From IMG/VR virus record IMGVR_UViG_3300041956_000050, positions 32,001 through 96,000 of that record: a stretch of 64,000 nucleotides of DNA, one strand, 5' to 3'. Positions within the stretch are counted from its first letter, which is position 1. Every line of letters starts with the position of its first letter. The notes beneath the pieces were generated by a model, which saw nothing but the letters and a program-made list of their open reading frames with translations, was not told where the DNA came from and searched no databases. Position numbers and translations under genes: made by a program. Positions 53,925 to 57,900 of the stretch are shown here, piece after piece. The DNA comes from a virus.

Positions 53925-54230
53925 CTAGAGCGCCTTGACGGTGACGCGGATCTTCTGCGGCTTGCCGAGCGCCGCATCCTGCTCCTGCGAGAGATAGACC
54001 GGCGAGGAGCCGTTGTCGCTGATCTCCTCGAAGCGGACACCGCCGCCCGACTGCGGCTCGTGCGGCTTGATCTCGCGGGTCGTGCGGTCGCGCTTGCCGC
54101 GCTGCATCGTGATCGTCACGCTGTCCTGCTCGCGCTTGGGGGTGCGCGTGCGGGTGGCAGCGGGCTTCACCGTCGTCGTGTTCTTCTTGACGGTGGACTT
54201 GCGGGTACGACGGGTGGCGGTGGTCGCCAT
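53925..54230 (-). CDS. Hypothetical protein with a basic N-terminal tail
   Basis: AGGAGG SD. Confidence 0.65.
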   Translation of the reverse strand: MATTATRRTRKSTVKKNTTTVKPAATRTRTPKREQDSVTITMQRGKRDRTTREIKPHEPQSGGGVRFEEISDNGSSPVYLSQEQDAALGKPQKIRVTVKAL

Positions 54231-54286
54231 GATTGATCCTCCTGTGGATCGGTGAGTGGCAGTCACTATGACTGGCACATACTGTG

Positions 54287-54378
54287 TACCGACAACCCTT
54301 GCGGTCGTCAGCGCGAGCACACACTCGCGAAGCCGCCAGTGTTGGCGGACTTTCGGCTGTTTTCAGCCGTTGTCGGTA
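54287..54378 (-). ncRNA. Hammerhead ribozyme variant, five-way junction (copy B)
   Basis: UACCGACAAC-[GGCUG AAAA CAGCC]-GAAA-G(U)CCGCCA ACAC UGGCGG-CU-U-[CGCGAG UGUGUG CUCGCG]-CUGACGA-[CC GCAA GG]-GUUGUCGGUA. Confidence 0.82.
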
Positions 54379-54551
54379 TTGACAACGATCACCCAGTTGG
54401 CATCGGGGTGCATTCCCCAGCGCGCCATGAACAGCGCGGCCGACAGCGTGCCGTCGTCATACTTGTTCATGTCAAGCCCGACCTCCAGTGCCTCGTCAAC
54501 GGAGTTGACAGTAAGCTCGGGCCAGTCGGACGAATATATGACACTTGTCAT
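54363..54551 (-). CDS. Hypothetical protein; stop codon lies inside ribozyme copy B
   Basis: AAAGGAG SD. Confidence 0.6.
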   Translation of the reverse strand: MTSVIYSSDWPELTVNSVDEALEVGLDMNKYDDGTLSAALFMARWGMHPDANWVIVVNTDNG

Positions 54552-54573
54552 ATGTGCTCCTTTGCAGGGGTTT

Positions 54574-54846
54574 TCAGTTGCAGCAGACGGGACCGTGATC
54601 AGTCTCGATCACGTCCGGCCACCAGCTAGGCCGCACGCGGATACCGCAGCGCTCGCGCCCGCCGATCTTGCCCGAGGGCATTACCGCGCAGCCGATGATG
54701 TCAATTTCGACATCATTCATGTCCGCGAAATGCTCCGCATCGCGCTCGATGACATCGTACATGTCATCATGCACCCTGTAATAGCGGCGAGCGATGAAGC
54801 GGCCAGTGGCGAAGTCGGTGAACTCGAACGGGAATGTGTTACGCAT
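54574..54846 (-). CDS. Hypothetical protein
   Basis: GAAAGGAG SD. Confidence 0.6.
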   Translation of the reverse strand: MRNTFPFEFTDFATGRFIARRYYRVHDDMYDVIERDAEHFADMNDVEIDIIGCAVMPSGKIGGRERCGIRVRPSWWPDVIETDHGPVCCN

Positions 54847-54874
54847 AATGACATGCTCCTTTCAGGGTTTGATA

Positions 54875-55120
54875 CTAGCGCCAGCTACTGCGGCGACGCT
54901 GATTGTCAGCGAACCACGCCTCGTAATGGCGCTCGGACAGTGACAGCGGCACGACATTCGCGCCCGAGCCGATGGCCGGATCGACCATCAGCGTCTCTGC
55001 CGCCATTACTGACAGCGGCGGCTGCTTGGGTGTGCGCTTGCGAGCCGGACGCTTACGCGGCGGCTCAACGGTGACGACAGCGGTCTGGACAGCCGCAATC
55101 GCGGCATCGAAGTCGAACAT
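54875..55120 (-). CDS. Hypothetical protein
   Basis: GGAGG SD. Confidence 0.55.
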   Translation of the reverse strand: MFDFDAAIAAVQTAVVTVEPPRKRPARKRTPKQPPLSVMAAETLMVDPAIGSGANVVPLSLSERHYEAWFADNQRRRSSWR

Positions 55121-55121
55121 G

Positions 55122-55340
55122 TCAGCATCCCTCCGGACGCGAGTAGGTGACAAAGCCATCGGCCTGGACGTGAGCGTCAAGCCAACGGCACCCAACGGGG
55201 CGCGTGAGAATGGCGTCACCGTTGACGGTATCGTCAGCGATGTGCTGCCAGTCGTCGCCCATAAGGGCGATACGCGCCTTCTGCGCATCGGTGAGCGGAT
55301 TCATGTCACGGAACGCTTCCCGTAGGGCCATGTCACGCAT
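55122..55340 (-). CDS. Hypothetical protein
   Basis: GAAAGGG SD. Confidence 0.55.
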   Translation of the reverse strand: MRDMALREAFRDMNPLTDAQKARIALMGDDWQHIADDTVNGDAILTRPVGCRWLDAHVQADGFVTYSRPEGC

Positions 55341-55371
55341 ATTGTTCACCCTTTCCTTGTTTGATCCTACC

Positions 55372-55668
55372 CTACGCCACGTAGGGGTCGTAGTTGTAGA
55401 ACGTTCCGACCTCACTGTCAGTGATCGGAGCGCACGCCTCAGCGTCCGCCTCCAGTCGCCGGAGCGTGCGCTCCAGCGCAGCCAGCGCACGGCCGGAGCC
55501 AACGCGAGGGTCGGCGGTGCCGGAGAAGACCTCGATCTTCGCACGCTTGGCACCCTGAGCCTGCGACTCTCCGAGCCAGACCTGACGCCCATTGGGCAGG
55601 ATCGCGGCGATCACCGTGGTGCCGACATTCGTCGGAATGGCAACCGTATCGAGCGTAGTGGTGAGCAT
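55372..55668 (-). CDS. Hypothetical protein
   Basis: AAGGAG SD, just downstream of ribozyme copy A. Confidence 0.65.
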   Translation of the reverse strand: MLTTTLDTVAIPTNVGTTVIAAILPNGRQVWLGESQAQGAKRAKIEVFSGTADPRVGSGRALAALERTLRRLEADAEACAPITDSEVGTFYNYDPYVA

Positions 55669-55690
55669 TACTGTTTACTCCTTACTGGAA

Positions 55691-55777
55691 GTGTCTGATC
55701 CCCCGTAGGGTCATCAGCGAGGGCACACACCCTCGAACGCCCGTAGGCGTTTCGGCCGTTTTCGGCCGATCAGTCAC
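55691..55777 (-). ncRNA. Hammerhead ribozyme variant, five-way junction (copy A)
   Basis: CUGAUC-[GGCCG AAAA CGGCC]-GAAA-CGCC UACG GGCG-U-U-[CGAGGG UGUGUG CCCUCG]-CUGAUGA-[CCC UACG GGG]-GAUCAG. Confidence 0.82.
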
Positions 55778-55812
55778 TACTGTTTCACCCCTATGGGGTG
55801 GCCGGAATTGGC

Positions 55813-55992
55813 TCAGCCGCAGACCGAGCTACGCTGCCCGAAACCGAGCGCACGCATATCGCGAAGCCGGATGGAATCCTCACGCTCACGCTCATCGGCG
55901 AGATACTGCTCACGGACCCAGGTGAAGTCCTGCGAAGCGGACGCGACGAGGTTGGAACCGGTGCCCTCGGAGGGATCGAAAATACGCTGCAT
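55813..55992 (-). CDS. Hypothetical protein
   Basis: GAAAGG SD. Confidence 0.5.
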   Translation of the reverse strand: MQRIFDPSEGTGSNLVASASQDFTWVREQYLADEREREDSIRLRDMRALGFGQRSSVCG

Positions 55993-56024
55993 TTGACTAC
56001 CTTTCGTGTGGAGAGACAGTGTAA

Positions 56025-56217
56025 ACACTGTCATTGATATGAAATATGACAAGTGGAATATGACGTTTCGCTACCCTTGACATTCCACTCCCTTCCCGGC
56101 CTCTCCCGCTTCTTCCTTCTTGCGCGAGAGGTCCGTGTCAGCATTAGTGACACAGTGAAGCGGGGAATCTGCCCCGCAGCGGCGAAAATGTGCGCCCAGG
56201 AGCGTTCACTGTGTCAA
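56025..56217 (-). ncRNA. Candidate structured leader or sRNA
   Basis: 12-bp TGACACAGTGAA/TTCACTGTGTCA enclosing two hairpins; AGTGGAAT/ATTCCACT stem; palindrome GACAGTGT-AA-ACACTGTC; starts just after a TAGGAT -10-like element. Confidence 0.45.
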
Positions 56218-56222
56218 TAATC

Positions 56223-56504
56223 CTACCACTTCGTGCGCTGCGTACCGCGCGCCTGACGCCTGCGGGCGTGACGGCCGTTGATCGGCTTCTGGTGGAAGAC
56301 CATCGGCTGCACATCGGCCTCGGCCACGCGGCCTCCAGTGACGCCGACACGAGTCTTGACATTCACTGTGTGACCGTTCTGCTTCGGTGAGGTGCGCAGA
56401 CCCTTGACAGAAGTCAAGCCGGTGTAGCGCATATCGCCAGCGCCGTAGCCGGAGACGCCAGTGCAAGCGGTGCTGATCGGTGCTTGGGTGATTTCTGACA
56501 GCAT
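56223..56504 (-). CDS. Hypothetical basic protein
   Basis: AAAGGAG SD. Confidence 0.6.
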   Translation of the reverse strand: MLSEITQAPISTACTGVSGYGAGDMRYTGLTSVKGLRTSPKQNGHTVNVKTRVGVTGGRVAEADVQPMVFHQKPINGRHARRRQARGTQRTKW

Positions 56505-56572
56505 TTTGACTCCTTTGGAGGGATGGTGGGGTGACAGTCATCTGTGCTGCCACCCCGTAGGGGTTGTTCGGC

Positions 56573-56857
56573 CTACAGCGAGGCGTAGTAGAGCGAGGCG
56601 TCGAGCATGGTGGGGAAGATGCGGCAGAAGTCGCGCATCGTGCGGTAGGGGCGAAGCCCGCTGTCACGGTGAGCGGAGTTGATCCGCTGGAACTGCCCGC
56701 TGCTCGGCTTGAGCGTGGCCATCTGCGCATCGCGCTTGGGGTCGCGCATGGTGGGGGCGCTCGTCTGCGCCTTACGCGGGAGCGCGATGGGCGCAATGGT
56801 GGTGCCCTCAAGGAGAGCGTTGACTTCTTCGATGGTGGCGATCATGGTGGCGGTCAT
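56573..56857 (-). CDS. Hypothetical protein, first gene of the - block
   Basis: GGAAAGGG SD. Confidence 0.6.
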   Translation of the reverse strand: MTATMIATIEEVNALLEGTTIAPIALPRKAQTSAPTMRDPKRDAQMATLKPSSGQFQRINSAHRDSGLRPYRTMRDFCRIFPTMLDASLYYASL

Positions 56858-56896
56858 TTTGACCCTTTCCGACAGCGTAGCTGTCAATGGTGGTGT

Positions 56897-56967
56897 GTGT
56901 TTCGGCCTTCCCGAAGGGCCATCCTCAGGCACTTTGTCAGCAAAGCTGACAGGGGACTGTGCGACAC
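56897..56967 (-). ncRNA. Type III hammerhead ribozyme with one extra U after A9
   Basis: GUGU-C^GCAC..(UGUCAGC UUU GCUGACA)..GUGC-CUGAGGA-U-GGCC CUUCGGGAA GGCC-GAAACAC; GUC cleavage triplet. Confidence 0.8.
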
Positions 56968-57550
56968 TGCGCAGATCGAGTTTCCAGACCCCGTAGGGGT
57001 CAACGAGTTGCTGCGCTTTGTCCGTGAGGCTTCGCTCCCGGTTTCTGCCGGGTTGGCTGCCCTGAATCCGTAGGATCACGACTCCCTACGGGAGGATGCG
57101 AATAAGCGCTCCGTCGTGTCGCTTGTCTCCCCTACGGGGAGGGTTGCCATGTGGGCCAGCGTGATCTACCGCCTCGGCGCTATCTGGACGCATCCTCGCA
57201 TGATTGTTCCGTGCCCTCACGATTATTGGGCACATCCCTACTTCCCGGCGCTGCGATGCCTGCTAGGCGACAACGCACACGACGGTTTTCGACCGCACTG
57301 TTCACGCAACCGTAAGCCCCAAAGGGACGGCCCTCACGCACGCCTAGCCGTGAGGAGGGAGATTGCGCACCGATCCGGCTCATGCGAGCGTGTTCTCGGA
57401 CGGATTTGCACTGGGCACTAGCCCACACATGCCTATGTGGGTGCCCGCTGTGTGTCGGCGTCGTGCGCTGCCCGCTGTGGGCCTTAGGCGCTGCGCTCCG
57501 GTTATGTGGGAGCGGCCTGTGTCGGGAGCGGACGGCTCGACCGACGCCCC
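56963..57550 (-). ncRNA. Candidate large structured ncRNA (about 590 nt)
   Basis: No credible ORF; more than 10 hairpins and long-range helices, plus an 8-bp loop-distal pairing. Confidence 0.45.
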
Positions 57551-57559
57551 AAAGATCGG

Positions 57560-57900
57560 CCGGGTTCCTAAAGAGAATCTAAAGAACCCCTCTCGGAGCG
57601 GATCAAAAAGTGCCGTTTTGCAGGGAAGATAAAGTTAGATAAAGATGTCTCAAGACCCCCAAATTGGCCAATAGTCAGGATTGTTGGCATTGGGAAAAAC
57701 CCGCTATTTGCGGGATTCTCAAAAGGTCGCTATTTGCGGACTTTCTCGCGAGGGCAAAATGTCGCTATTTGCGACATCTCGACAAGGGTGTTTTCACCGT
57801 GTTTTTCAACGGTGAAAAGCTGTCGTGAATGCTTACTGTGAAAGCTGAGGTGACATGTGAGGTGACATGTCACTATGACTGTTACTTACCCCCACCCAAT
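57560..57900. promoter_or_regulatory. AT-rich divergence point with iterated hairpins (possible origin, pac site or control region)
   Basis: CGCTATTTGCG x3 (57702, 57728, 57763); 10-bp inverted repeat 57791-57818; GAGGTGACATGT x2; palindrome GTGACATGTCAC. Confidence 0.55.

Follow-up and report, generated by a model that had tools for sequence, protein, structure and literature searches.

The 64,000-nucleotide stretch of DNA analyzed here (the window; bases 32001–96000 of IMG/VR virus record IMGVR_UViG_3300041956_000050, which is 108,063 bp long with a completeness of 96%; GC is ~61%) contains three hammerhead-core motifs at the head of a minus-strand block of small open reading frames (ORFs). 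These are probably self-cleaving ribozymes of the hammerhead class, built into the first ~3 kb of a phage operon. The motifs, numbered sites 1 to 3 from 5′ to 3′ on that strand, are the only three in the 108-kb genome and all lie within 2.7 kb, flanking blocks of three and five small ORFs. The array itself is ordinary, a small further example of a phage habit known since 2011. Site 1 has the layout of a type III hammerhead; sites 2 and 3, as read from their sequences, belong to none of types I, II and III as defined, nor to any of the six block orders given by Eckert et al. 2023 (PMC10085705). We regard it as plausible, if somewhat short of an even chance, that sites 2 and 3 and their relatives are active ribozymes of a new topology: a permutation opened inside the core at A9/G10.1, with three capped stems and a fourth closing helix that doubles as a strand-exchange switch.

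The initial annotation of this DNA had described three hammerheads, and the core motif is indeed present at all three of its positions on the minus strand, but sites 2 and 3 are not canonical, which it did not remark. Its cuts (56963|56962, 55736|55735 and 54330|54329) are correct, and the sizes of the two pieces between them, 1227 nt and 1406 nt, follow arithmetically. It also placed each motif in an intergenic gap 20–60 nt before a start codon. The motif-to-start gaps are 39, 22 and 51 nt, but site 3 is not fully intergenic, and the stop codon of the ORF at 54363–54551 falls within its stem II hairpin. The core criteria applied to all sites are those of Perreault et al. 2011 (PMC3088659). 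The nucleotides C3 U4 G5 A6 N7 G8 A9 and G12 A13 A14, the A15.1–U16.1 pair and an H17 that is not G are complete at sites 1, 2 and 3. Positions 1.1–2.1, 10.1–11.1 and 15.1–16.1 are paired as G-C, G-C and A-U at site 1 and as C-G, G-C and A-U at sites 2 and 3, where the test takes the GGCYG-AAAA-CRGCC hairpin as stem II.

Sites 2 and 3 share a single 5′–3′ plan, consisting of the 5′ strand of a helix P1, the hairpin GGCYG-AAAA-CRGCC, GAAA, stem III, U-H at the cut, stem I, CUGAYGA, a hairpin D, the 3′ strand of P1 and a tail with ACAC. At site 2 (55691–55773, minus strand; identified by sequence, fold, descriptor and covariance model) P1 is formed by CUGAUC (55773–55768) and GAUCAG (55700–55695), and between these strands lie the stem II hairpin GGCCG-AAAA-CGGCC (55767–55754), GAAA (55753–55750), the stem III hairpin up to U16.1 at 55737, H17 (a U at 55736), the stem I hairpin with loop UGUGUG (55735–55718), the core CUGAUGA (55717–55711) and hairpin D (CCC-UACG-GGG, 55710–55701); the tail is ACAC at 55694–55691. 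Site 3 (54282–54376, minus strand; identified by sequence, fold, descriptor and an ortholog in a related contig, L127) has P1 strands CCGACAA (54376–54370) and UUGUCGG (54295–54289), which enclose the stem II hairpin GGCUG-AAAA-CAGCC (54368–54355, containing the upstream ORF stop UGA at 54365–54363), GAAA (54354–54351), the stem III hairpin up to U16.1 at 54331, H17 (a U at 54330), the stem I hairpin, again with loop UGUGUG (54329–54312), the core CUGACGA (54311–54305) and hairpin D (CC-GCAA-GG, 54304–54296), followed by the tail UACACAG (54288–54282). The predicted structures thus have the core nucleotides in type II order with all three stems as closed hairpins, and show the chain entering and leaving the core between A9 and G10.1, via hairpin D and the 6–7 bp closing helix P1. 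P1 is separated from the core by one hairpin on each side.

This arrangement departs from known hammerheads in its connections. Eckert et al. 2023 (PMC10085705) held the CUGAnGA segment to be inseparable from the stem II strand, with no insertion of more than 1–2 nt known there. At sites 2 and 3 that continuity is lost, and G10.1 lies ~60 nt upstream of A9 in the chain, so that the predicted wiring breaks a rule stated for all known hammerheads. The open stem II of type II, formed by the strands beside G12 and A9, is also missing: these nucleotides are CC and CC at sites 2 and 3, and CC and CU in L127. The usual open stem II therefore cannot form at either site, and a direct pairing of the two strands was rejected as impossible. 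The block order is G-S-C with nested hairpin stems, which is not a non-circular permutation. The pseudoknot between loop I and the 3′ tail is present, as UGUG/ACAC(A) at sites 2 and 3 and as UGCG/CGCA in L127.

We adopted the closed-stem-II reading because canonical type II hammerheads in two unrelated contigs, L128 and L131, carry the same GAAAACAGCC-GAAA strand, paired there to GGC after A9. The strand before GAAA pairs with GGC following A9 in all three unrelated phage contigs where this was seen (L128, L131 and L233). Taking the first hairpin of sites 2 and 3 as stem II restores the canonical G10.1–C11.1 pair, and every core criterion of Perreault et al. is then satisfied. An alternative type I reading of CUGAUC, stem II and GAAA at site 2 was discarded, as G8 and A9 are absent and there is no stem I partner; site 3 has CCGACAA in that position. 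The canonical type II elements with a loop I/tail pseudoknot in these unrelated IMG/VR contigs are at L128:11970–12073, L131:273–368 and 841–925, and L233:192–282. The L128 element is also found in thirteen further loci (L130, L133, L134, L136, L138, L140, L141, L145, L147–L149, L151 and others). These canonical elements share the GAAAACAGCC-GAAA strand with the rewired form, L233 having GAAAACUGCC-GAAA, and the two copies in L131 are ~550 nt apart, which makes another small array.

Site 1 (56897–56967, minus strand; identified by sequence and descriptor scan) is a type III hammerhead-like motif, with the order stem III 5′ strand, cleavage site, stem I hairpin, CUGAnGA, stem II hairpin, GAAA and stem III 3′ strand. 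Stem III pairs GUGU (56967–56964) with ACAC, the 3′ strand ending at 56897, and C17 at 56963 belongs to the cleavage triplet GUC. Stem I (56962–56929) has 4 bp, a 7/2 internal loop and a 7-bp hairpin, and is followed by the core CUGAGGA (56928–56922), an extra U after A9 (56921), stem II GGCC-CUUCGGGAA-GGCC with the G10.1–C11.1 pair (56920–56904) and GAAA (56903–56900). The extra U is one nucleotide and falls within the continuity rule for CUGAnGA and the stem II strand. A pairing of UCCC in the internal loop of stem I with GGGA in loop II is possible.

A descriptor was written for each topology, and its matches were compared with those in dinucleotide shuffles and in 2.05 Mb of phage and bacterial DNA unrelated to this genome. 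In the genome there are exactly two matches, sites 2 and 3, to GAAA, hairpin closed by A...U, H, hairpin, CUGANGA, versus 0.1 per dinucleotide shuffle. The full descriptor with closed stem II matches sites 2 and 3 and the L127 ortholog, and there are three weak spurious matches in the 2.05 Mb background. For the type III descriptor there is one match in the genome (site 1), none in the 2.05 Mb, and a match in one of 400 dinucleotide shuffles; the case for site 1 as a hammerhead is this descriptor match. Folding z-scores are −5.0 at site 2, −5.8 at site 3 and +0.4 at site 1, and the minimum free energy structure of site 2 is the rewired fold. The sole match in an Rfam search of a 3.6-kb region at E≤10, a resemblance of site 3 to the DUF3577 RNA (18.3 bits vs 42.6), was taken as a chance likeness of the form hairpin-GAAA-hairpin.

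The relative L127, the one contig that a metagenome scan yielded, is 7.3 kb long and has a homolog of the 98-aa protein of this region that is 86% identical. Conservation in related phages, which the initial annotation had named as a check, holds for site 3, which is kept in L127, but not for sites 1 and 2, which are absent from it. The ortholog of site 3 is at L127:5810–5905, ahead of the same basic-protein gene, and has P1 GCUGAUU/AGUCAGC, stem III UUGCAGG/CCUGCAA, stem I GGAGAG/CUCUCC, hairpin D CUCC-AUUC-GGAG, loop I UGUGCG and the tail ACGCA. The sole change in its core is a flip to U15.1–A16.1, a variant that self-cleaves at a reduced rate (PMC3088659). In an alignment of three sequences (site 3, L127 and site 2), 92.5% of cells are paired, versus 37–48% when the partners are slid, and none of 500 shuffles reaches these values. 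Thirteen of the 32 pairs are altered on both sides, including six of seven in stem III, three of six in stem I and one pseudoknot pair (U-A to C-G). A further soil-metagenome relative has 54274–54381 replaced by 109 other letters, whose visible 30-nt end starts GCUGAUC-GGCGG-AAAA-CCGCC; its stem II (GGCGG/CCGCC) supplies a third pair type at 10.4–11.4.

A covariance model built from the three rewired copies finds only sites 2 (94 bits) and 3 (92.4 bits) in the whole genome. The variants score 92–101 bits, and canonical type II hammerheads score 12–27 bits on the same model. No further rewired members were found among the matches listed by DNA-pattern scans of viral contigs and of bacterial and archaeal genomes, which were noise or canonical type II. 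A search of viral contigs with the 387-aa protein found no relatives, and the terminase led to six fragments of 4–11 kb with no ribozyme in them.

L127 lacks site 2 through a clean indel of ~100 nt. Site 2 and its flanks (55683–55796, corresponding to L127:4973–4984) form a clean insertion or deletion between conserved genes, with short AGTA repeats at both edges that hint that ribozyme cassettes may move as units. Because L127 keeps site 3 without sites 1 and 2, the ribozymes appear to behave as optional modules that come and go between conserved genes. At the position of site 1 in L127 (3820–3898, ~50 nt before the first gene) the hammerhead is replaced by a weak tRNA-like element, with a 7-bp acceptor-like stem (UGAUCCG/CGGAUCA) and a T-arm (GCAGG-UUCGAUU-CCUGC). 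It scores 22.5 bits (E 0.67) with the tRNA-Sec model, and ARAGORN reports nothing there, nor any tRNA in the window or elsewhere in L127. It may serve as an RNase P/Z processing site in the role that site 1 would have in the window.

In every copy the 5′ strand of P1 resembles the catalytic strand: CUGAUC against CUGAUGA at site 2, GCUGAUU against CUGAUGA in L127, and CCGACAA against CUGACGA at site 3. Because the P1 5′ strand mimics CUGAYGA, two partners are open to the P1 3′ strand, namely P1 5′ and the core. Counting G-U wobbles, the contiguous pairs between the P1 3′ strand and the core number five at site 2, seven at site 3 and five in L127, with per-copy chance probabilities for the dual pairing of 0.043, 0.0005 and 0.061, respectively. 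At N7, the one free position of the core, the P1 5′ strand has the matching letter in all three copies (U at site 2, C at site 3, U in L127). Under constrained folding, the active fold with P1 formed and the core-masking fold are within about 1–8 kcal/mol of each other. The dual pairing is perhaps left over from a duplication, or else a selected switch; that it has survived while P1 diverged speaks for selection. As a built-in switch, P1 3′ paired with P1 5′ would give the active fold, and P1 3′ paired with the core an inactive hairpin. After cutting, the 3′ product could fold back on its own core, freeing the 6–7 bp of P1 and leaving two hairpins at the 5′ end, by which the products would be released and the downstream RNA capped. 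An alternative is that ribosomes finishing the upstream ORF could hold the ribozyme off and so tie cutting to translation. Such coupling to ribosome traffic is possible because the upstream ORF ends inside the ribozyme both at site 3, where the stop codon is in stem II, and in L127, where it is in P1.

Each ribozyme would cut 3′ of H17 as the transcript is made. The predicted products are a leader poor in ORFs, then pieces of 1227 nt with three genes and of 1406 nt with five, and lastly the remainder of the operon. Site 1 would sever a ~650-nt ORF-poor leader from the first gene if the promoter-like site described below is used. The ends of hammerhead products are a 5′-OH and a 2′,3′-cyclic phosphate, which are joined by RtcB. 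[quoted passage not shown] Ends of this kind should resist 3′ exonucleases and 5′-monophosphate-dependent RNase E/J and could give each piece its own lifetime; we infer this stabilising role from the established end chemistry and the terminal hairpins of the products. The most likely role would be the cutting of a long phage transcript into gene-block RNAs, by analogy with the prophage arrays for which this was proposed in 2011. Clustered prophage hammerheads cleave in vitro and in E. coli, and the same cutting role was suggested for them (Perreault et al. 2011, PMC3088659). The anatomy of the sites fits the view in the initial annotation of self-cleaving ribozymes predicted to process the operon start, a plausible idea that is not new, having appeared in 2011.

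Several points weigh against three active ribozymes at the head of one transcript. The comparative set is tiny, comprising two paralogs, one ortholog and one 30-nt fragment, and sites 1 and 2 appear dispensable since L127 does without both. The sequencing runs that contain the sequence are of soil DNA only, with no RNA run listed, and the assumption of a single transcript rests on one weak promoter-like match. An Rfam scan of the whole window at gathering thresholds called nothing, with RF00008, RF00163 and RF02275-7 among the families included. Site 1 has short stems I and III of 4 bp each, the unremarkable z-score given above and no homolog. The array may accordingly be a pair, sites 2 and 3 being real and site 1 a chance or decayed match, and we hold this to be rather unlikely but deserving of attention. 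The Hammerhead_3 model gives no match to site 1 even in a 121-nt Rfam search, and L127 has its tRNA-like element at that position. However, the type III descriptor is almost never matched in shuffled genomes or in other real DNA, and site 1 lies on the same strand as site 2, 1.2 kb from it, in a gap 39 nt before a start codon, with GUC (the commonest cleavage triplet), the G10.1–C11.1 pair and a possible 4-bp loop-loop pairing, UCCC/GGGA.

Sites 2 and 3 could instead be conserved structured RNAs derived from type II hammerheads that no longer cut and that act between genes in stability, folding or protein binding, the letters of the core having been kept for structure or by recent descent. A break of the core strand at A9/G10.1 is unprecedented, and the inactive fold, in which CUGAU is hidden, is at least as stable as the active one; with wider flanks the masked fold is slightly favoured, the energy of the pseudoknot and tertiary contacts being uncounted, and this too counts against activity. 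L127 carries the weakening U15.1–A16.1 pair, and Rfam hammerhead scores are far below threshold: the best alignment at site 2, in a 131-nt search with Hammerhead_II, is local (model positions 4–56 of 66), reaches 14.8 bits vs a threshold of 37, and spans GAAA, stem III, UC, stem I and CUGAUGA, leaving out stem II. We nevertheless think loss of cutting improbable, at about one chance in several, as all catalytic positions are kept across copies that differ in 13 stem pairs, and selection for catalysis would be expected to leave such a pattern. The pseudoknot between loop I and the tail, found in most type II hammerheads and needed for fast cleavage (PMC3088659), is kept through a compensatory change, and one extra base at A9/G10.1 is tolerated in the CChMVd hammerhead, as cited in PMC1636495. 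Far less probable is the suggestion in the initial annotation that excised pieces become circular polycistronic mRNAs, joined by host RtcB or by ribozyme reversal. Hammerhead ends are RtcB substrates by established biochemistry, and each piece is flanked by two ribozymes, but the proposal finds no support. The ligase genes that the annotation proposed looking for did not turn up, neither RtcB nor Rnl2-type families being found in the 96%-complete phage genome; the T4 Rnl1-type family also gave no match in the phage, but gave none in 14 of 14 control genomes either. Nothing would bring the piece ends together for self-ligation, because neighbouring half-ribozymes cannot pair (the P1 strands CCGACAA and GAUCAG are not complementary, and site 1 is of another type), and neither circles nor spliced products were detected in comparable arrays (Perreault et al., PMC3088659).

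The 108-kb record encodes a terminase, a portal protein, an endolysin, a UvsX-like recombinase and a DnaE-type polymerase. GenBank phages include no close relative: none matches this phage at the DNA level, and its terminase shares only 25% identity with a Microcystis phage protein. Near-identical DNA is found in soil metagenome runs only. The small ORFs of the minus-strand block have no Pfam or PHROG match. Piece 1 carries three of them (55813–56857, minus strand), encoding products of 94 aa (56857–56573), 93 aa (56504–56223) and 59 aa (55991–55813), the last of which is conserved in L127. Piece 2 carries five (54363–55668, minus strand), of 98, 72, 81, 90 and 62 aa. Six metagenomic relatives of the 98-aa protein, at 58–86% identity, indicate that at least this ORF is a real gene. 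The first gene 3′ of site 3 (53925–54230, minus strand) encodes a 101-aa protein with a Lys/Arg/Thr-rich N-terminus. Its 5′ untranslated region, from ribozyme to start codon, is wholly conserved in L127; it includes a hairpin, GAUCC (54250–54246) with GGAUC (54239–54235) on the minus strand, which overlaps the ribosome binding site and has a counterpart at L127:5937–5952, and a UGUGC(G) stretch that duplicates loop I and could be a rival partner for the tail of the pseudoknot.

A promoter-like site (TTGAGA, 16 nt, TATCTT; 57626–57653, minus strand), found by a consensus scan that gave two such sites vs 1.3 expected, lies ~650 nt upstream of site 1 and could start the transcript there, on weak evidence. 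It is preceded by a terminator-like hairpin (57714–57700, minus strand). The leader (56964–57625, minus strand) is ORF-poor and GC-rich with no similarity to L127, and its 3′ end would be made by the cut at site 1. The gap of 230 nt ahead of the 59-aa ORF contains an 11-bp inverted repeat, GACACAGTGAA/TTCACTGTGTC, and palindromic TTGTCATA...TGACA sequences (56149–56215, minus strand). This may be an internal promoter or operator, in which case the region would not be one simple transcript. The intergenic gaps of this region contain repeated short hairpins of the type CCCC-UAC/AUA-GGGG (56550–56563, 56985–56999, 55787–55801 and others near 57066–57141); one is just upstream of site 1 and another just upstream of site 2, the latter belonging to the indel missing from L127.

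We found no description of wiring like that of sites 2 and 3 in full-text literature searches. If these sites are active, the hammerhead core tolerates a whole transcript threaded through the A9/G10.1 step, which was assumed to be uninterruptible in the 2023 count of permutations. The search space for ribozymes would widen, because current models and descriptors miss such sites, and engineers would gain a hammerhead in which all three loops could take aptamers or tertiary contacts. The closing helix that mimics the core would also be a natural and testable example of a ribozyme with a built-in alternative pairing.

In the early transcript of phage T7, RNase III cuts at intergenic structured sites and yields stable gene-sized RNAs with hairpin ends. 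The cutting logic proposed here is alike, and the likeness is a functional analogy only, as the T7 sites need a host protein enzyme and leave a 5′-phosphate and a 3′-OH. The prophage arrays of Perreault et al. 2011 (PMC3088659) are closer. They too have several hammerheads of mixed type that share a strand and a stretch of a few kb, lying between small phage genes whose identity varies, and cutting into gene- or operon-length RNAs was proposed for them, with the idea of circles already raised. The present sites form a clustered array in the same sense, with at least two hammerheads on one strand within a few kb, flanking blocks of phage genes. However, the prophage ribozymes are canonical types I–III with cleavage shown, whereas two of the three sites here are non-canonical and known from sequence alone.

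Among individual hammerheads, sites 2 and 3 are most readily compared with type II (RF02276), with which they share GAAA, the stem III hairpin, the cleavage site, the stem I hairpin, CUGAnGA and a tail that pairs with loop I. In type II, stem II is open and is made from the strands after A9 and before G12; at sites 2 and 3 the strand before G12 instead pairs on its own 5′ side, and A9 leads into an extra hairpin and a new closing helix. The SGC, CSG and GCS permutations (PMC10085705) are likewise natural hammerheads with unexpected connections that standard models miss. They reorder the intact blocks C, G and S and have pseudoknotted cores, whereas at sites 2 and 3 the order is ordinary and block C itself is split. 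In the CChMVd (+) hammerhead an A10 is inserted between A9 and G10.1 and slows cleavage moderately, according to De la Pena and Flores 2001 as cited in PMC1636495. That insertion is at the exact step in question, and the extra U of site 1 is of the same kind; the CChMVd insertion is a single nucleotide, whereas sites 2 and 3 have all the remaining transcript at that step, with hairpin D and P1 as the bridge. Finally, a pseudoknot hammerhead solved by crystallography (PMC11300833) has helix II replaced by a loop-loop helix and an extra stem-loop on helix I. It shows that the helix II side tolerates radical rebuilding with the core and mechanism unchanged. Sites 2 and 3 have an ordinary hairpin as stem II, and what is new in them is the point at which the strand would enter and leave the core.

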